A DNA stretch of 64,000 nt, taken from the NCBI GenBank assembly GCA_016464795.1, contig JAEKNN010000025.1, positions 13,548 to 77,547 on the forward strand. Direction: 5' to 3'. The position numbers were made by a program, and so were the translations under genes. This DNA comes from Candidatus Amunia macphersoniae. GTDB taxonomy: Bacteria; Chloroflexota; Dormibacteria; Aeolococcales; Aeolococcaceae. Within the stretch, counting starts at the first letter, position 1. Each line of letters opens with the position of its first letter. Under the pieces are notes generated by a model that was given only the letters and a program-made list of their open reading frames with translations, was not told the DNA's origin and did not search any database. Below are positions 4,147 through 55,468 of the stretch, in pieces.

Positions 4147-4503
4147 ATGCTCTCGGACTTCGCGCCGATCCTCGTCTTCCTTGCCGTCTGCGTCGCATTT
4201 GGGGCCGGAGTGCAGGCACTGGCCTCGTGGTTCGGCCCCCGCCGGCCCAGCGCGGCAAAGGATCTTCCCTACGAGTGCGGCATCGTTCCGGTCGAGAGCG
4301 CGCGCCGCCGTTTCTCGGTCAGCTTCTACGTCACCGCGATGCTCTTCATCATCTTCGATGTCGAGTCGATCTTTCTGCTGCCGTGGGCGACGATTGTGCG
4401 TCAGCTCAAGGTGTTCGGCGTGGTCGAGATGGGAGTCTTCATAGCCGCGCTCTTGATCGGGCTCATCTATGTGTGGGCCAAGGGAGCCCTGCGATGGGAC
4501 TGA
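4147..4503 (+). CDS. nuoA: NADH-quinone oxidoreductase subunit A
   Basis: 118-aa three-helix membrane protein with PYECG, first gene of the nuo cluster. AGGA lies 5 nt upstream of the ATG. Confidence 0.9.
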
Positions 4504-5063
4504 CCGTCGACGCTGCCACCGGTCTGCCGATCCTCAACGCGCAGGGCGATGCAGGAGCCATCCCGCTCCCTCGCGTGGGTGACCTGGAGCGGACGGCAGC
4601 CAAGGCGGGGGCGATCACAACCACCATCGAGAAGGTCATCCAGTGGGGGAGGTACAGCTCGCTGTGGCCCGCGCTGTTCGGGCTGGCGTGCTGCGCCATC
4701 GAGATGATGGCGGCGGGGGCCGCCCGGTACGACATGTCTCGTTTCGGGTGTGAGGTCTTCCGTGCGTCGCCCCGGCAGGCCGACCTGATGATCGTGGCCG
4801 GCCGCGTGTCGCAGAAGATGGGACCAGTCCTGCGCCAGATCTACGACCAGATGCCGGAGCCGAAGTGGGTGATCAGCATGGGTGCCTGCGCCTCCACCGG
4901 CGGAATGTTCAACAACTACGCGATCATCAACGGCGTCGACAAGCTGGTTCCGGTCGATGTCTATATCCCAGGATGCCCGCCCCGTCCCGAGGGACTTCTC
5001 GACGCTGTCGTGAAGCTCCAGGCGAAGATCGCCGCCGAGCGGCCCAACTCCCTGCGAGGGTAG
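4494..5063 (+). CDS. nuoB: NADH-quinone oxidoreductase subunit B
   Basis: [17 protein letters not shown] and [12 protein letters not shown] motifs. I chose the ATG at 4494, which overlaps the nuoA end; the ORF-track start at 4128 is an upstream in-frame artefact. Confidence 0.9.
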
Positions 5064-5068
5064 GTCCC

Positions 5069-5653
5069 GTGACCACCAGCATCGCGTCCACGGCTTCCGC
5101 ACGTCCATCTCGCGGGCGTCGGGCTGCAGACCTCCTGGCTCGCGACCTCCCCGACGCGATCCTGATGGTGCTGGATGGGGTCGGTGAGGTGGCTGTGGTG
5201 ATTGCTCGGGAGTACCTGGTTCGCACCATGGTGCTGCTGCGCGATCATCCCGACACGCTCTACAAGGTGCCGCTTCTGGTGACCGCGGTGGACTGGCCCG
5301 ACCGCGAGCCCGAGGCGCCGCGCTTCGATGTGGTGTATCAGCTGCGCTCCCTGCACCACAACGACGACTGCCGCCTCATCGTTCAGGTCACCGAGGCAGC
5401 CCCCGAGCTGCCCAGCATCGAGCGCGTCTTCGCCGGGATGGACTGGCACGAGCGCGAGACGTTCGACCTCTTCGGCATCGAGTTCGTCGACCATCACGAT
5501 CTCCAGCGCATCCTCCTTCCCGACGATTGGGACGGCCACCCGCTGCGCAAGGACTATGCGAGCTTTGGCGAGCCGGTTGCCTTCACCCACAACCTGGAGT
5601 GGGCGCTGCCGGCCGCGGAGCGCCCGCGCGACATGCCGGGGAGCACGCGCTGA
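5069..5653 (+). CDS. nuoC: NADH-quinone oxidoreductase subunit C
   Basis: Contains [15 protein letters not shown]...[15 protein letters not shown]. The GTG at 5069 is 5 nt after the nuoB stop. Confidence 0.85.
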
Positions 5654-6948
5654 TGGCGGTCCTGCCGCCCCCGGGCGGCCCCAGCCTGCCGACGCGCGAT
5701 CCGGTGTCCGACGCCTTCGACCGCGGCCGCACCATGCTCGGCGTCGACAGCGCCAACGACGCCATCGACATCGTCCAGCTGGACGACGAGACCATGGAGC
5801 TGAACATGGGGCCGCAGCACCCCAGCACACACGGCGTGCTGCGCCTGGTGCTCGAGCTCGACGGTGAGGTGGTCCGCGCGTGCCGGCCCGACATCGGCTA
5901 CCTTCACACCGGCTTCGAGAAATCCTTCGAGGGGCACACCTGGCAGCAGTGCATCCCGTTCACCGACCGGATGGACTATCTCGCCCCGCTCTTCAACAAT
6001 CTGGGATTCTCGCTCGCAGCCGAGCGGCTGCTGGCGATCGAGGTTCCCGCGCGCGCCCAGTACCTGCGCGTGATCATGTGCGAGCTGACGCGAATCGCCA
6101 GCCATTTTCTGTGGTTCGGCACAAGTGCGCTCGACATGGGCGCCACCACGCCCTTCATCTACGCGTGGCGTGAGCGTGAGAAGCTGCTGGACATCAACGA
6201 GCTGGTGAGCGGGGTGCGCATGCACACCTCGTTCATCCGCGTCGGCGGCCTCCTGGCCGACGTGCCCGACGAGTTCTACGCGCTTGTCAACGAGGTGGTT
6301 CGCACCTTCCCGCGGTTCATCGACGAGTACGAGCTGCTGATCACCAAGAATCCCATTTGGGTGCAGCGCACTCGAGGGCTGGGAGTGATCACGCCCGACG
6401 ACGCCATGGCCTACGGCGTCACGGGACCGACGTTGCGCGGCAGCGGGGTCCCCTACGACCTGCGCAAGGCATGCCCGTACAGCTCGTACGACCACTTCGA
6501 GTTCGACGTGCCCATCGGCAGCCACGGCGACGCGTACGACCGCTACCTGGTGCGCATGCACGAGACGCGCGAGTCGCTGCGCATCATCGAGCAGGCGATG
6601 GCCAACCTGCCGGGCGGCCCCGTCAACACCAGCGACCGCAAGGTCGCGCTGCCGCCGCGCAACGAGATCAACACCTCGATGGAGTCGCTCATCCGCCACT
6701 TCAAGCTGGTCACCGAAGGCTTCCACGTCCCCCGCGGCCAGGTCTACCAGGCCATCGAGTCACCTCGGGGCGAGCTCGGCTTCTATGTGGTCAGTGACGG
6801 AGGCAACCGTCCGTATCGCTGCAAGGTGCGTGCCCCCTCGTTCAGCAACCTGAGCGCACTGCCCCACATGGTCCACGACGAGATGATCTCGGACGTGGTG
6901 GCGGTGATCGGGTCGATCGACCTCGTGCTGGGGGACGTGGATCGATGA
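5653..6948 (+). CDS. nuoD: NADH-quinone oxidoreductase subunit D
   Basis: Contains NMGPQHPSTHGVLRLVLELDGE. The ATG at 5653 overlaps the nuoC stop (ATGA). Confidence 0.92.
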   Translation: MAVLPPPGGPSLPTRDPVSDAFDRGRTMLGVDSANDAIDIVQLDDETMELNMGPQHPSTHGVLRLVLELDGEVVRACRPDIGYLHTGFEKSFEGHTWQQCIPFTDRMDYLAPLFNNLGFSLAAERLLAIEVPARAQYLRVIMCELTRIASHFLWFGTSALDMGATTPFIYAWREREKLLDINELVSGVRMHTSFIRVGGLLADVPDEFYALVNEVVRTFPRFIDEYELLITKNPIWVQRTRGLGVITPDDAMAYGVTGPTLRGSGVPYDLRKACPYSSYDHFEFDVPIGSHGDAYDRYLVRMHETRESLRIIEQAMANLPGGPVNTSDRKVALPPRNEINTSMESLIRHFKLVTEGFHVPRGQVYQAIESPRGELGFYVVSDGGNRPYRCKVRAPSFSNLSALPHMVHDEMISDVVAVIGSIDLVLGDVDR

Positions 6949-6981
6949 GCGTCCCGTACGTGAGCCTGCGGCCTTGGGGCG

Positions 6982-7126
6982 GGAGGGCGGTGAAGGGGCC
7001 CCTCCTTGCGCTTCGGACAGGCTTCGACGTCACTGGCGGTCGCGATGAACGCGCCACCGGCGCGTCCCTCGCAACCTCGGGCGTCTGCAGAACTTGCGCT
7101 GCTGAGGGGCCCCTTCACCGCCCTCC
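6982..7126 (+). repeat. Nested-palindrome element, copy A (23-bp perfect inverted arms plus ~99-nt core)
   Basis: The left arm ggagggcggtgaaggggcccctc (6982-7004) is the exact reverse complement of 7104-7126. The core has the hairpin cgcgcc-acc-ggcgcg (7050-7064) and the block ctgcagaacttgcgc. Confidence 0.85.
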
Positions 7127-7360
7127 TTCCCATGGCACCGGCGCGGAGACGGGCGGCTCATGGCGACCTTCGGGGATGGCTGAAGCCTCGTCTCGCTACG
7201 GAGTCCCTTCTGTGCGCGGGCGGCGTCGTCTCGCCTGCGGAGAGACGGCTGCGACAGGGGTTGCCAGCGATTGGGACAGTGCGTCGACGAGAGCGGATCT
7301 GCGGAGCGCCCCGGTCGCTCCGCCGTTTCTTAAGGTGCCGCTGAGCGACAGCGAGAGGGC

Positions 7361-7497
7361 GTGGGGGCGGGGACGTGTCCGTGGCGCAAGTTCTGCAGAC
7401 GCCCGAGGTCGCGAGGGACGCGCCGGTGGCGCGTTCATCGCGACCGCCAACGGCGTCGAAGCCTGTCCGAAGCGCAAGGACACGTCCCCGCCCCCAC
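7361..7497 (-). repeat. Nested-palindrome element, copy B (20-bp perfect arms; core inverted relative to copy A)
   Basis: Arms are gtgggggcggggacgtgtcc and ggacacgtccccgcccccac. The core is the reverse complement of the copy A core with about 5 mismatches in ~95 nt. Coordinates are +/-1. Confidence 0.85.
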
Positions 7498-7596
7498 GCC
7501 CGTCTTCGGCGGGAGCACGGACGTCCCCGCCCCCACGCCCGGCTTCGGCGGGAGCACGGACGTCCCCGCCCCCACGACCGGCTTCCGCGGGAGCAC
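7478..7596. repeat. Tandem repeat, 3 units of 39-41 bp, abutting the nuoE start
   Basis: The unit ggac(ac)gtccccgcccccacgcccggcttcggcgggagcac occurs three times. The first unit is the right arm of copy B. Confidence 0.85.
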
Positions 7597-7603
7597 TGAC
7601 CCC

Positions 7604-8368
7604 GTGCCTCTAGCCTCCGACACCGTCCGCGAGATCACCGCGCTCAGGGTCCGCTACCCGCAGCCTCGGAGCGCCATCCTGCCCTGCCTGTGGGCGGTGC
7701 AGAACGAGCTCGGCTACCTCTCTGCCGAGGGCATGGAGGAGGTGGCTGCGATCCTCGATCTGGCGCCCAGCGAGGTGCAGGCGGTGAGCACCTTCTACTC
7801 GATGTACTTCGCCCAGCCCGCAGGCGATCACCAGCTGCTCATCTGTGTCAACGTGAGTTGTGCGTTGCGTGGCGCTGACGCCATCGTCGATCACGTGCAA
7901 AGCCGCCTTGGCTGTCCCTCCGGAGGGACCACAGGCGATGGAAAGTTCACCTGGGAGAGCACCATCGAGTGCCTGGGAGCCTGCGGTGGTGCACCGGCCA
8001 TGCAGGTGAACCATCACTTCCACGAGAACCTCACACCTGACCGAGTCGATGGGCTCCTCGAGCGCCTGCGCGCTGAGCCGCGGCCAAGCCATGCCAACGG
8101 GCAGAGCGTGGGGCATGTCGCTGAGGCGCTGACCGTGAAGGCTCCGTCCAGCGGACCGCACCCGCCGTCGGCCGAGACACCTCCTGCGCCGAATGCCGAG
8201 GGCCCGCCAGCGGACACGGGCGTGAGCGACCCCGCCTTCCCGGCGCCCGAGCTCCCGCTCGGCGAGCACACCGAGATGCCCGGCTCACGCAGCAAGCGCA
8301 GCTACACCAAGCGGGGCAGTCGGAGCGCGCCCCGCAAGCGACCGCGTCCCAACGCGGGCGATCTGTAG
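7604..8368 (+). CDS. nuoE: NADH-quinone oxidoreductase subunit E with ~100-aa Pro/Ala-rich, basic C-terminal tail
   Basis: Contains RSAILPCLWAVQNELGYL, CVNVSCALRGAD and ECLGACGGAPAMQVN. I chose the GTG at 7604. The ORF-track start at 7361 would translate repeat DNA. Confidence 0.85.
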   Translation: MPLASDTVREITALRVRYPQPRSAILPCLWAVQNELGYLSAEGMEEVAAILDLAPSEVQAVSTFYSMYFAQPAGDHQLLICVNVSCALRGADAIVDHVQSRLGCPSGGTTGDGKFTWESTIECLGACGGAPAMQVNHHFHENLTPDRVDGLLERLRAEPRPSHANGQSVGHVAEALTVKAPSSGPHPPSAETPPAPNAEGPPADTGVSDPAFPAPELPLGEHTEMPGSRSKRSYTKRGSRSAPRKRPRPNAGDL

Positions 8369-21326: not shown

Positions 21327-22658
21327 ATGACCGTTCACCGCGAGCACCTCCCCGCTCAGGACAGGTTGCGCGCGCTCCCGGTGCCTGCAGTGGTAAGTCC
21401 CGACACTGCCCTCAGGCGCCATGGACGAGAGTCCACACACGCTGCCACGCGCGGCCAACGATCTCCCAACCTTGACGTTCTCCGTGCCCTCGCAGCGGTG
21501 ATGGTGGTGGCCGCACACGCGAACTACCTGAACGCGGTCACGCGCGCACCCTCCGGCGGACTTCGCCACTACATGTGGTCTGGCGTCAACCTGTTCTTTG
21601 TCCTCAGCGGGTATCTGATCACGCGACCCTTCATTGTTGCCCTGTGCCAGGGCAGACCACGCCCCCGCCTGCTGGCCTACACGGTGCGGCGGGCGTCGCG
21701 CATCCTCCCGGCGTACTGGCTCGTCATCGCGGTCAGCTTGCTGATCATGCGACCCTTGACGGCCACGTGGTCTGAGGTGGTCAGTCACCTTCTGCTGATC
21801 CACGACAGCGTTCCTGGCCAGACGTACACGGTGGTGGCCGTGGCCTGGACGCTGGGTGTCGAGGCGGCCTTCTATGTGTTGGTTCCGCTCGCCGCGGCAG
21901 TGACCGGCTTGCGCAGCCATGGCCCGGTGGCGCCGCGCAGGATTGCTGCCATCATCGTTGGCGCGTGGATCCTGAGCGCGGTGTGGTCATGGGCGGCCGC
22001 GTCATTCGGAAGTGACTGGATGGGGAACATGGGCAGCCAGGGCATCAATGATGCCGGGGACGGTGCTCCAGCCCTGCTCACGGTGAACCTACCGGCGAAG
22101 TTGTTCCTCTTCTGTCCAGGAGTCTTGATCGCCCTGGCTGAGTGCTGCGGTGCGCTCGAGTCTCTGCGGCTGACGCGAACCGCTGTGGGTCGCGCCGTGA
22201 TGGTGCTTGCCTCCGGAGTGTTGTGGTGGGCTGGTGTGCTCGTCGACTGGGGGCACTCGACACCGGCCAGCCGAGCTGCCCGGGACGAGCTCTTCGCAGC
22301 GGCATTCGGCGTGTTGCTTGTCATCGCGATCCAGACGAGGCCGTGGCGCTCCCCGCTTGCGCGAGTCGCCGCATCCGTCGGCGTGGTGTCGTACGGCCTC
22401 TATCTCTGGCACGGCATCACCGAGGATTGGATTCGCGGTGCGCACGTCTCTCTACCGACGCTCGGCGGCCCCACATCAACCTGGCTCCTGGCAACAGCCG
22501 CCGTGGCGCTGACCGGACTGATCCCGGCGACGTTGAGCTGGGTGTTGCTCGAGCGCTCCCTCATCGCGCGCGCGGCCCGCGCCTTCTCGGTGCGAACCGC
22601 GTCGTCGCCGCGTCCTCCGGACGCTGTCACCTCACACGTGCGGTGGCGCCCCCGTTAG
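21327..22658 (+). CDS. Acyltransferase 3 family membrane protein
   Basis: Polytopic. LDVLRALAAVMVVAAHA and FFVLSGYLITRPF are typical of the acyltransferase_3 family. ATG at 21327 is preceded by ACGGAG. The last 5 codons lie in the tRNA-derived repeat. Confidence 0.8.
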   Translation: MTVHREHLPAQDRLRALPVPAVVSPDTALRRHGRESTHAATRGQRSPNLDVLRALAAVMVVAAHANYLNAVTRAPSGGLRHYMWSGVNLFFVLSGYLITRPFIVALCQGRPRPRLLAYTVRRASRILPAYWLVIAVSLLIMRPLTATWSEVVSHLLLIHDSVPGQTYTVVAVAWTLGVEAAFYVLVPLAAAVTGLRSHGPVAPRRIAAIIVGAWILSAVWSWAAASFGSDWMGNMGSQGINDAGDGAPALLTVNLPAKLFLFCPGVLIALAECCGALESLRLTRTAVGRAVMVLASGVLWWAGVLVDWGHSTPASRAARDELFAAAFGVLLVIAIQTRPWRSPLARVAASVGVVSYGLYLWHGITEDWIRGAHVSLPTLGGPTSTWLLATAAVALTGLIPATLSWVLLERSLIARAARAFSVRTASSPRPPDAVTSHVRWRPR

Positions 22659-22692
22659 GAATCGAACCAACGACCAACCGCTTAGAAGGCGG
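22644..22692 (-). repeat. 49-nt copy of the 3' part of tRNA-Arg(TCT), att-like direct repeat
   Basis: 47/49 identity to 28270-28318 (anticodon stem through CCA) in the same orientation. Similarity stops at the 5' side of the anticodon stem. Confidence 0.85.
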
Positions 22693-28218: not shown

Positions 28219-28269
28219 GGGATAGGGGCGTCACGACTCGCGGACCCGATGCTGTTCGAGACCCGGCAG

Positions 28270-28345
28270 TGGCGCCCCCGGTAGGAATCGAACCTACGAC
28301 CAACCGCTTAGAAGGCGGCTGCTCTATCCGCTGAGCTACGGGGGC
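28270..28345 (-). tRNA. tRNA-Arg (anticodon TCT), CCA encoded
   Basis: Manual cloverleaf: GCCCCCG-TA-GCTC-AGCGGAT-AGAGC-A-GCCGC-CTTCTAA-GCGGT-TGGTC-GTAGG-TTCGATT-CCTAC-CGGGGGC-G-CCA. Confidence 0.9.
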
Positions 28346-53297: not shown

Positions 53298-53553
53298 CAA
53301 GCGGGGGAGGAGCCCCTCGCCGCCCGCTGCGGTCAGGGCTTCGGGGGCGTGGGTGCCAAGCGGGGGAGGAGCCCCTCGCCGCCCGCTGCGGTCAGGGCTT
53401 CGGGAGCGCTGGTGCCAAGCGGGGAGGAGCCCCTCACCGCCCGCTGCGGTCAGGGCTTCGGGAGCGCTGGCGTCGCTGCGCACTCGCCACTGGCGAGTGC
53501 TTCGCTCCTTCGCTCCCTGCAGAATCTGGCGGCCGTCGAGGGGCTCCTCCCCC
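53298..53553 (+). repeat. Nested-palindrome element, copy C, with its left arm plus 5' core block amplified 3 x 59 bp
   Basis: Three left arms gggggaggagcccctc (53303, 53362, ~53421) face one right arm gaggggctcctccccc (53538-53553). Internal hairpin gcactcgcc-act-ggcgagtgc at 53480-53500. Contains the ctgcagaatct block. Confidence 0.85.
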
Positions 53554-53879
53554 TCATGTCAGCGACCCCCTCTCTGTGAGTGCGACGGCCGATGGGTCCC
53601 ATGCCTCGAGGTCGGTGGCGCAGCCTCAGGCTTCGCTGGGTGGACAGCAACCTGAGCGTCGACACGATGCGGCCGTCCGTCCGGGTTGGCCGTGCATGGG
53701 GTCGAGATCGTGCTCGCAGAGCGGTGCCTGCTCGGGCGCCTGGACACCGGGGTTCGAGTGCGAGCAGCGGCGCTCGAAGCTGCCGGTCCGGGGGATGTAA
53801 GCTCCCCCGGTCCGCGTTGACGAGCATGGTGGACACGAGTCAGCGCCCCGGACGAGGACATCAGGTCACGGAGGTGGTG

Positions 53880-55229
53880 ATGCAGGACACCGACACTCCA
53901 CGGCAGCTGCGACGGGCGGTGGTTGCCAGCGTGGTGGGAACCTCGATCGAGTGGTACGACTTCTTCCTCTACGGGTCCGCCGCCGCCCTCGTCTTTCCCA
54001 AGCTGTTCTTTCCCAAGAGCGCCCCGCTGACGGGAGCGCTGCTCTCCTTTGCCACCTACGCGGTGGGGTTCGCGGCCCGACCGGTGGGCGCGTGGATCTT
54101 CGGAAGCTACGGCGACCGGATCGGTCGCAAGGCGACGCTGATCGTGACCCTCCTGACCATGGGCATTGCCACCGCCCTGATCGGGGTGCTGCCGACGTAC
54201 TCGAGCATTGGTATCTGGGGCGGAATCATCCTGACGGTCCTGCGTGTCTTCCAAGGCATTGGAGTGGGCGGCGAATGGGGTGGGTCGGTGCTGCTCGCAA
54301 TGGAATGGGGGAGCAATCGCCGCCGGGGGCTGGTCGCCAGCTGGCCGCAGATGGGCGTTCCCATCGGCCTGATCCTGGGCAATGGGGCCCTGCTCATCTT
54401 CAGCAACGTCACCGGCTCAGCGTTTCTCGAGTGGGGCTGGCGGATTCCCTTCCTGCTGAGCTTCGTCCTGGTTGCCGTCGGCCTGTACATTCGGCTCGGT
54501 GTCATGGAGACGCCGCTCTTCAGAAAGCTCGTTGCCGAGAAGAGGGTGGAGCCGCGCCCGTTCACGACAGTGGTGCGACGGAACTGGCGGGAGATCCTCC
54601 TCGCCATGTTCGTCCGCACATCTGAGCAGGCACCCTTCTACATCCTCACCGCCTTCGTGCTGGTCTACGGGACCGAGCAGCTGAAGCTGGGCAAAAACTT
54701 CATGCTGTTCTGTGTCTTCTTCGCCGCCTGCCTGTCGCTGCTCACCATCCCCCTGGCTGGGATGGCGTCGGACCGGTTCGGTCGGCGGCCTGTGTACATG
54801 GTCGGCGTCATCCTCATCGGGCTGGTGGCGTTTCCCTATTTCGCGCTGCTCAACACCGGTGTCGCTGCACTTGTGGTCATCGCGGTGGTCGTCTCACTGA
54901 TTCCCCACGACATCCAGTACGGGCCGCAGGCAGCCCTGATCGCCGAGAGCTTCACCGGACGGCTGCGCTACAGCGGAGCCTCCATGGGCTATCAGCTCGC
55001 CTCGCTCACCGCCGGGGGACCTGCTCCGTTGATCGCCACCAAGCTCCTCTCCGTCTACCACTCCTCAACGCCGATCGCCCTCTACATCGTGGGATGTTCG
55101 GTGGTGAGCCTGGTGGCGCTGCTGTTCATGAAGGAGCGGTCCCAGGTCGACCACACTGTCGAATATGACTCGCAGCCGAGCGGGCTTGGTGCCGGCTCAC
55201 CGACGGTGGGGGCGCCGGTCGGTCGGTAG
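53880..55229 (+). CDS. MFS transporter, metabolite:H+ symporter (MHS; ProP/KgtP/ShiA-like) family
   Basis: GTSIEWYDFFLYGSAAALVF and GDRIGRK. ATG at 53880 is preceded by GGAGGTG. The ORF-track start at 53580 is an upstream artefact. Confidence 0.85.
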   Translation: MQDTDTPRQLRRAVVASVVGTSIEWYDFFLYGSAAALVFPKLFFPKSAPLTGALLSFATYAVGFAARPVGAWIFGSYGDRIGRKATLIVTLLTMGIATALIGVLPTYSSIGIWGGIILTVLRVFQGIGVGGEWGGSVLLAMEWGSNRRRGLVASWPQMGVPIGLILGNGALLIFSNVTGSAFLEWGWRIPFLLSFVLVAVGLYIRLGVMETPLFRKLVAEKRVEPRPFTTVVRRNWREILLAMFVRTSEQAPFYILTAFVLVYGTEQLKLGKNFMLFCVFFAACLSLLTIPLAGMASDRFGRRPVYMVGVILIGLVAFPYFALLNTGVAALVVIAVVVSLIPHDIQYGPQAALIAESFTGRLRYSGASMGYQLASLTAGGPAPLIATKLLSVYHSSTPIALYIVGCSVVSLVALLFMKERSQVDHTVEYDSQPSGLGAGSPTVGAPVGR

Positions 55230-55250
55230 TTGGGGGCGGGCGGGAGCGGT

Positions 55251-55383
55251 GGGGATGAAACCCCTGGGCGGCCGCAAGATTCTGCAGGGGGCGAAGGAGC
55301 GAAGCGGTCGCCGGTGGCGACCGCGCAGTGACGCCCCGCCGCCGAAGCCCTGCCCGAAGCGGTCGCCCAGGGGTTTCATCCCC
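55251..55383 (-). repeat. Nested-palindrome element, copy D (18-bp perfect arms; inverted relative to copy C)
   Basis: Arms are ggggatgaaacccctggg and cccaggggtttcatcccc. Internal hairpin gcggtcgcc-ggt-ggcgaccgc at 55304-55324. The reverse complement carries ttcgctccttcgccccctgcagaatcttgcggccg, 33/35 identical to copy C. Confidence 0.85.
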
Positions 55384-55468
55384 GCCGCGTCGAGGTTCGA
55401 CCACGAAACGGACGGCGCGCGACCCGCCGGTATACTCGGCGTGAGGTCAGACACCGTCGAGGAGTTCC

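Follow-up and report, generated by a model that had tools for sequence, protein, structure and literature searches.

Tight coupling of translation between neighbouring genes is commonly illustrated with the operons for complex I. In the 64-kb stretch of Candidatus Amunia macphersoniae DNA analysed here (contig JAEKNN010000025.1, hereafter the window), a spacer of 655 nt (6949-7603) separates nuoD from nuoE and is the sole long gap among the nuo junctions. The spacer holds two copies of a dispersed palindromic repeat, and an open reading frame (ORF), called here the relay ORF, bridges it from the stop of nuoD to the start of nuoE. From comparison with related genomes, we regard the spacer as probably a mini-cistron that is translated and into which selfish, hairpin-forming repeats have moved.

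MITEs, short for miniature inverted-repeat transposable elements, can be co-transcribed into operons, as are Correia/NEMIS in Neisseria and ERIC/IRU in the enterobacteria, and alter mRNA processing or stability. They carry family-wide terminal inverted repeats and target-site duplications, and have a recognisable parent insertion sequence (IS). The palindromic elements of Rickettsia insert in frame into coding genes and become part of functional, conserved proteins. Integron attC sites, which serve in recombination, are defined by the way a single strand folds; little of their sequence is conserved, and the terminal hairpin varies. In a coupling leader cistron the stop overlaps the downstream start, translation unfolds the mRNA and delivers ribosomes, and the peptide is irrelevant; such a leader cistron was reportedly engineered as the 'bicistronic design' by Mutalik and colleagues in 2013.

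The repetitive extragenic palindromes (REPs), with their BIME and REPIN assemblies and including the GTAG- and CGTC-tagged families, are extragenic and often occur as inverted pairs that fold into larger structures (Di Nocera et al., 2013, PMC3733652). They are enriched between unidirectional or convergent genes and frequently co-transcribed with their neighbours, and no dedicated transposase is known for the CGTC families (PMC3733652). Individual REPs measure 20-40 bp, and their conserved part consists of the stem sequence and an unpaired tag (PMC3733652).

A reading frame bridging nuoD and nuoE

The last codons of nuoD, GAT CGA TGA, form an ATGA overlap (TGA at 6946-6948) in which the ATG of the relay ORF lies. 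The frame runs for 222 codons and ends at a TAG (7611-7613) 7 nt past the start of nuoE, overlapping nuoE codons 3-4. The same relation recurs in relatives, whose loci are cited here by L numbers: in nearly all loci with a spacer (13-655 nt), the ORF that begins at the nuoD-overlapping ATG is 8 to 222 codons long and has its end close to the nuoE start, at -2 to +10 nt. L014 and L032 are exceptions, and in L069 the frame continues into nuoE. The relay stop and the nuoE start are combined in several forms (ATGA, GTGA, TGATG and GTGnnnnTAG), and short spacers show start/stop overlaps at both ends, for example agATGA...gcATGAcg in L090. Relatives that are free of the insert also possess the mini-cistron, with 8 codons in L001 and 16 codons in L003.

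Three comparisons carry the case that this frame is under constraint. Firstly, 18 distinct spacer lengths equal 1 modulo 3 (13, 19, 25, 34, 37, 43, 52, 64, 73, 82, 115, 148, 193, 259, 427, 478, 595 and 655 nt), the exceptions being 479 (L014), 503 (L032) and 26 nt (L069, in frame with nuoE). By our own arithmetic, 17 of 19 length changes are multiples of three, which has a binomial p of ~6e-7 at a chance of one third each. Secondly, the relay frame contains no stop codon in the five long spacers other than L014, against means of 2.0-4.0 in the other five frames. Thirdly, the last Arg codon of nuoD is CGA or AGA, giving the ATG, in 26 of the 28 loci of the spacer-bearing clade and CGT, with a TTG start, in the remaining two; over the rest of these nuoD genes, 4.4% of Arg codons end in A.

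Together, the conserved start codon, the frame relation and the open frame suggest that translation is relayed across the spacer. The uncoupling of nuoE-N from nuoA-D proposed in the earlier note on this DNA is thus not supported. Ribosomes ending at the nuoD TGA would re-initiate at the overlapping ATG and translate the insert, melting its hairpins as they pass. They would then terminate at TAG 7611-7613 and restart at GTG 7604, with the GGGAG at 7589-7593 helping. Expression of nuoE-N would by this relay stay coupled to that of nuoA-D despite an insert of some -450 kcal/mol. The relay peptide itself would have no function, and a translating ribosome would prevent a terminator-like hairpin at 7301-7333 from forming.

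NuoD of the window is at most 92% identical to any entry of the protein collection searched, where the named matches are to Candidatus Dormibacterota, and a look-up of the exact protein gave no record. A metagenome scan with NuoD added 43 loci. The junction comparison proposed in the earlier note finds the insert absent from some close relatives: the nuoD-nuoE gap is 13 nt in L001 (NuoD 92% identical) and 37 nt in L003/L004 (87%). A spacer of 478 nt with two inverted elements is present in L002 (90%) and one of 259 nt with a single element in L005 (86%). The layout of the window, an inverted element followed by a middle segment and a forward element, recurs at the same junction in L012, L014, L032, L041 and L052, and at least seven other genomes, produced by independent projects, carry orthologous inserts. 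Such sharing among several species marks the insert as old. Fragments of the element persist at the junction in L058, L059, L060 and L081, where it has been partly lost or eroded.

The series of junctions shows how the spacer arose. In more distant Dormibacterota (77-82% NuoD identity) there is no spacer, and the ATG that overlaps the nuoD stop (ATGA, -4, or an equivalent) serves as the nuoE start, as in cgATGAcgctc, which reads M T L S... from nuoE. In the derived clade, a short insertion left that ATG to open a mini-ORF, which ends in a stop that overlaps or adjoins a new nuoE start. Copies of the palindromic repeat then inserted into the mini-cistron, mostly as an inverted pair, and in the window genome a 3 x 39-bp tandem duplication brought the spacer to 655 nt and the relay ORF to 222 codons.

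The arrangement matches a coupled relay cistron in its start overlapping the upstream stop (ATGA, 6945-6948), its stop at or near the nuoE start in nearly all spacer-bearing loci, and an open frame that is kept while the peptide is unconstrained. It differs from the bicistronic design in being natural, chained as nuoD-relay ORF-nuoE and grown to 222 codons by repeats, all as read from sequence alone. As with the Rickettsia elements, a palindromic repeat lies within an ORF whose frame stays intact, here in an ORF presumed to be translated; unlike them, no product of the host ORF is conserved, and the frame in which the elements are read differs between species.

Two side observations concern these junctions. 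In L058 (a metagenome contig, ~4257-4451) an eroded element is accompanied by a twofold tandem copy of the 3' arm and the nuoE ribosome-binding region, which parallels the 3 x 39-bp array of the window. In L002 (8516-9810) nuoF was called 24 residues shorter and is followed by a gap of 73 nt before nuoG, against 0 in the window; a long-read assembly frameshift or another junction change is possible.

Spacer anatomy and the dispersed repeat family

The tightness of the remaining nuo junctions noted earlier was borne out, with an E-F gap of 12 nt, an F-G gap of 0, a G/H overlap of 4 nt, an H-I gap of 10 nt and overlaps of 4 nt each from I/J to M/N; the junctions given for nuoA-D (A/B overlap 10 nt, B-C gap 5 nt, C/D ATGA overlap) agree with gene calls in relatives. 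The described contents of the spacer also stood, and were delimited here as two nested palindromes of ~145 nt in opposite orientation, a middle segment of 225 nt and a 3 x 39-bp tandem array (Table 1). What had been missed is that the palindromes belong to a repeat family with copies dispersed elsewhere. Their 97-nt cores (7003-7099 and 7384-7480) are mutually 96% complementary, so elements A and B are one sequence in opposite orientations with differing outer arms. The 53-nt core pattern occurs at two places only in 64 kb, both in the spacer, with 0 expected from shuffles. The middle segment contains one short conserved block at ~7163-7180 (ggCTCAtggcga), and the 39-bp unit consists of the distal 3' arm of element B plus ~20 nt of flank including GGGAG. 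The very stable structure anticipated in the earlier note is predicted by RNA folding, at -453.7 kcal/mol for the whole spacer (z = -13.2), -98 kcal/mol for element A (z = -8.5) and -113 kcal/mol for element B (z = -10.5).

Table 1. Features of the nuoD-nuoE region and further repeat copies in the window
Feature	Coordinates	Strand	Details
nuoD	5653..6948	+	Translation; 92% identity to Dormibacterota NuoD; PF00346
Relay (bridging) ORF	6945..7613	+	222 codons; ATG overlaps nuoD stop; TAG 7611-7613
Repeat element A	6977..7131	- (motif strand)	Covariance-model match 6983-7122, 111 bits; outer stem P1 arms 6977-7004 / 7104-7131, 28 nt, 93% complementary
Middle segment	7132..7356		46-71% identity to middle segments of orthologous spacers
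Terminator-like hairpin	7301..7333	+ (operon strand)	Hairpin 7301-7323, 8 pairs (7 G-C), then CGTTTCTTAA
Repeat element B	7357..7501	+ (motif strand)	Covariance-model match 7361-7500, 115 bits; outer stem P1 arms 7357-7383 / 7475-7501, 27 nt, 96% complementary
3 x 39-bp tandem array	7482..7598	+	Unit identities 100/97/90%; Tandem Repeats Finder score 210
GGGAG, Shine-Dalgarno-like	7589..7593	+	10 nt upstream of nuoE GTG; sequence reading
nuoE	7604..8368	+	GTG start; Pfam 2Fe-2S_thioredx at 1e-46
Third repeat copy	53298..53570	-	Covariance-model match 53416-53554, 70 bits
Fourth repeat copy	55246..55388	+	Covariance-model match 55250-55387, 68 bits

A covariance model built from 58 copies places exactly four copies of the family in the window. 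On the motif strand, an outer stem (P1) of 20-30 bp is followed by gcGAGTTCTGCAG as the first loop strand, then by a hairpin of 16-75 nt (the inner hairpin, P2), by CGAAGCCTGTCTGAGC as the second loop strand and by the return arm of P1. In the 58-copy alignment both loop strands are invariant or nearly so; the outer stem and inner hairpin vary yet stay paired, with 89% of alignment cells paired against 60% in column shuffles and 37-48% in slid-partner controls. Compensatory changes on both sides were found at 26 of 30 pairs. Within one genome the outer arms are specific to each copy, yet nearly perfectly paired. At orthologous sites (the forward element of the nuo junction in L002, L012 and L032, and L013 versus L053) the outer arms have been kept while the subtype of the inner hairpin differs, a pattern which suggests that the core may be exchanged between copies while the site stays fixed.

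A strict two-strand pattern, searched against one genome per species (185,579 species), matched 49 stretches. Many belong to metagenome-assembled genomes (MAGs) of Dormibacterota, others to MAGs of Coriobacteriales, Coriobacteriia, Eggerthellaceae and Olsenella and to further Actinomycetota MAGs (within Actinomycetota, Coriobacteriia predominate), and a few carry doubtful labels ('Eubacteriales' and 'Paludibacteraceae' contigs at 67-70% G+C). Copies are sparse, at ~1 per 15-100 kb in the DNA examined. The pattern had no match among viral contigs, and a BLAST search of one copy against plasmids gave chance matches only. Rfam 15, queried with the spacer region and eight loci of other taxa, returned only spurious sub-threshold plant miRNA and leader matches, such as MIR918, which scored 29.5 bits where its gathering score is 268. 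The literature searched held nothing relevant on repeats of Dormibacterota or Coriobacteriia, nor on the loop sequence, and the family appears to be undescribed in the sources consulted.

Copies are intergenic and lie in both orientations: by crude ORF calls, 7 are sense and 10 antisense between co-directional genes, and 12 contexts are convergent versus 4 divergent. Copies have been gained, truncated and lost between strains and species. Inverted pairs were found at the nuo junction, at 53.4/55.3 kb of the window, and in L030 and L031, always with the gcGAGTTCTGCAG sides facing inward. Tandem duplications take the distal 3' arm and its flank, on the same motif side, at 7482-7598, at 53298-53473 and in L058 and L053; the array at 53298-53473, on the third copy, comprises three 59-bp units. 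No direct repeats were seen by eye at the outer-stem ends that would represent a target-site duplication, and in the loci examined no gene stood between two halves of a split site. In search of a mobilising gene, the ORFs surrounding 48 copies were clustered; this recovered only syntenic host genes, and no gene recurred beside copies from different lineages.

Two further observations were made on individual copies. The third and fourth copies flank, in inverted orientation, an MFS/sugar-transporter gene (53580-55229, Pfam 1e-23), and their arms around it (85 nt, 84% complementary, 1697 nt apart) resemble the ends of a composite element. In L040, a Coriobacteriales MAG, the whole element stands in tandem (5002-5241), the second copy with a different, poorly paired outer stem.

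In location, pairing and instability the repeats look like REP- or MITE-type extragenic selfish DNA in a tolerant site. Like REPs, the family is extragenic, forms inverted dimers and lies between unidirectional or convergent genes; unlike REPs, it has a nested unit of ~140 nt with copy-specific arms, conserved internal-loop strands and no tag. The resemblance to MITEs consists in a small, non-autonomous hairpin insertion within one transcription unit whose presence varies between strains. MITEs differ in their conserved terminal repeats, where the outer-stem columns of the 58 copies vary freely, and no target duplication or parent IS was seen in the stretches examined. That an element can be defined by conserved loops while its stems are free has a precedent in integron attC sites, but gcGAGTTCTGCAG and CGAAGCCTGTCTGAGC do not fit the R/L box consensus (RYYYAAC / GTTRRRY), cassette arrays are absent and no integrase gene was seen nearby.

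Alternative explanations

Several points weigh against a translated mini-cistron carrying selfish repeats. Shuffle tests give weak signals for individual spacers (p = 0.02-0.12 each), and their Fisher combination over all spacers is not significant (p = 0.28), in a test where short spacers are uninformative and even a stop at the extreme end of an ORF was scored as internal. It is owing to this weakness that we rely on the comparisons of frame, start codon and alternative frames. The orthologous spacers are not fully independent of one another, and the conserved element cores leave less sequence in which variation could occur. Two stops interrupt the relay frame of L014, which may be a long-read assembly error, and in L032 the relay frame runs into nuoE. 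Translation of the relay ORF is itself inferred from comparative constraint, efficient passage of ribosomes through G+C-rich stems of 23-28 bp is presumed, and nuoE, with its own Shine-Dalgarno-like motif, might initiate independently. Finally, neither a transposase nor any other mobilising gene was found near any copy, in the 8-kb stretches or in the 64-kb window.

Related strain X2, from a rock metagenome, carries the same nuoD-nuoE insert, with compensatory substitutions relative to the window in the outer stem of element A (6985/7123 and 6994/7114). Both tandem arrays, in the nuo spacer and at 53 kb, are apparently shorter. On contigs that pass through the tandem repeat, the relay ORF of X2 with the listed differences stays open for 204 codons and ends at a TGA (7597-7599) 4 nt before the nuoE GTG, in keeping with constraint on the frame; on the same contigs there seems to be a 40-nt deletion, which is not a multiple of three and counts against a conserved frame relation. 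Contigs from soil metatranscriptomes of distant relatives touch nuoD and the repeat core and are uninformative for the spacer.

At the fourth repeat copy, X2 lacks 55251-55369, a deletion of 119 nt: in a 6-kb contig, 55250 is followed directly by 55370, with a microhomology of GGGG at the joint. Most of the element is gone, and a short hairpin (gcggtgggg-tttcat-ccccgccgc) is left. This site, the one place where a filled and a possibly empty site could be compared, was considered as a pre-insertion empty target and rejected. Given the GGGG direct repeat and the part of the outer stem left behind, the joint is read as a slippage deletion.

The strongest alternative, to which we give a distinctly smaller chance, is that the insert acts as RNA, whether as a processing site for RNase III or another nuclease, a stabiliser, an attenuator or a terminator that splits the operon, with nuoE-N translated independently and the open frame incidental. 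The folding energy of the spacer (-454 kcal/mol), its near-perfect stems of 23-28 bp and the GGGAG 10 nt upstream of the nuoE GTG all speak for it. Co-transcribed Correia elements of Neisseria, moreover, are cut by RNase III. The terminator-like hairpin at 7301-7333 adds to this, being expected only 0.1 times in shuffles and followed by the only T-rich stretch in the region (TTTCTT), although it is not conserved in orthologous spacers. A promoter scan of the spacer region, specific to sigma-70, detected no sigma-70-like site. An action as RNA also leaves unexplained the conserved start codon at the nuoD stop, the frame relation over 18 spacer lengths, the stop-free relay frame and the stop/start overlaps at the nuoE end of short spacers. 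The two could operate side by side, and RNA-level effects in addition to the relay, namely RNase III cleavage of the long stems, a change in mRNA stability or an effect of the terminator-like hairpin, are possible.

Somewhat less probable again is that the repeat is a functional structured nucleic acid (a non-coding RNA, a ribozyme, or a module recognised by a protein or recombinase) whose loops are active and whose nuo copies are specific. The invariance of the loop strands across two phyla and the covariation of both stems would fit this, as would the persistence of orthologous copies in species whose neutral sites are saturated. On the motif strand, G-U pairs in the outer stem outnumber A-C mismatches by 61 to 30, and this strand folds ~4 kcal/mol better in 43 of 56 copies, a bias that comes in part from one subfamily-specific G-U pair. 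Against a specific function, copies stand in either orientation, and the nuo mRNA would contain both orientations. Stems of 20-30 bp with almost perfect pairing are more characteristic of DNA palindromes than of functional RNAs, and copies turn over between strains and species. Reading of the repeat alignment found no enrichment of GNRA or UNCG loops.

Compared by eye with known motifs (hammerhead, hairpin-ribozyme loop A, kink-turn, loop E, box C/D and group II domain 5), the loop strands seemed to fit none of them.

We think it improbable that ORF 6945-7613 is a real gene, for instance a lineage-specific accessory subunit with in-frame palindromic insertions of the Rickettsia kind. Its 222 open codons appear translationally coupled at both ends, and the frame is conserved in relatives. 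However, the ORF can be as short as 8 and as long as 222 codons, its peptides defy alignment between relatives, and L002 and L032 differ in the frame in which the same element is read. Its GC1/GC2/GC3 of 0.70/0.75/0.71 is unlike that of any nuo gene (GC3 is 0.82-0.91 in nuoD, nuoE and nuoF), a Pfam search gave no match, and gene callers called nothing in the spacers of L002 or L005. A protein-coding reading of the 222 codons was rejected on composition, lack of conservation and the absence of a Pfam match.

An assembly or scaffolding artefact caused by the repeats is highly improbable: short-read contigs of run X1 (98% of sampled words present) do break at repeats, but the pieces overlap and tile 6500-8000, the whole spacer included, with 0 differences, and the architecture recurs at this junction in a second strain and in seven other genomes, which come from independent projects.

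A more ambitious reading than a mini-cistron invaded by selfish repeats takes the repeat as a new structure-defined class of element and the relay ORF as a natural bicistronic design; the two claims jointly are tentative and, to our minds, rather doubtful. In such a class the invariant loop strands would be recognised by a recombinase or nuclease, or would be catalytic as RNA or single-stranded DNA, and the inner hairpin would be a cassette exchangeable at fixed sites. The relay ORF, for its part, could be a cistron of unconstrained sequence that is selected to stay open so that ribosomes unfold the selfish insert and the production of complex I subunits stays coupled.

Elsewhere in the window, a 53-nt direct repeat (22640-22692 / 28266-28318, 94% identical) was observed, one copy of which forms the 3' part of a tRNA-Arg(tct) gene (28270-28345, - strand). 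The 5.6 kb between the two copies resembles an integrated island; a Pfam scan of six ORFs of this putative island revealed no integrase, only an acyltransferase and a weak DUF3558 match.

Implications for operon structure and annotation

The repeat family combines conserved loops with free stems, the reverse of REPs and MITEs. It spans two phyla, including Dormibacterota, a candidate phylum about which little has been established, and is absent from Rfam. For annotation, ORFs such as 6945-7613 would best be labelled neither as 'hypothetical proteins' nor as plain 'intergenic' sequence.

The nuo case indicates how an operon may tolerate a large, extremely structured selfish insertion, by housing it in a mini-cistron of which only the start, the stop and the open frame are conserved. 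If this is true, the relay ORF would be a natural counterpart of engineered leader cistrons, and a clear case of selection on translatability and not on a protein.

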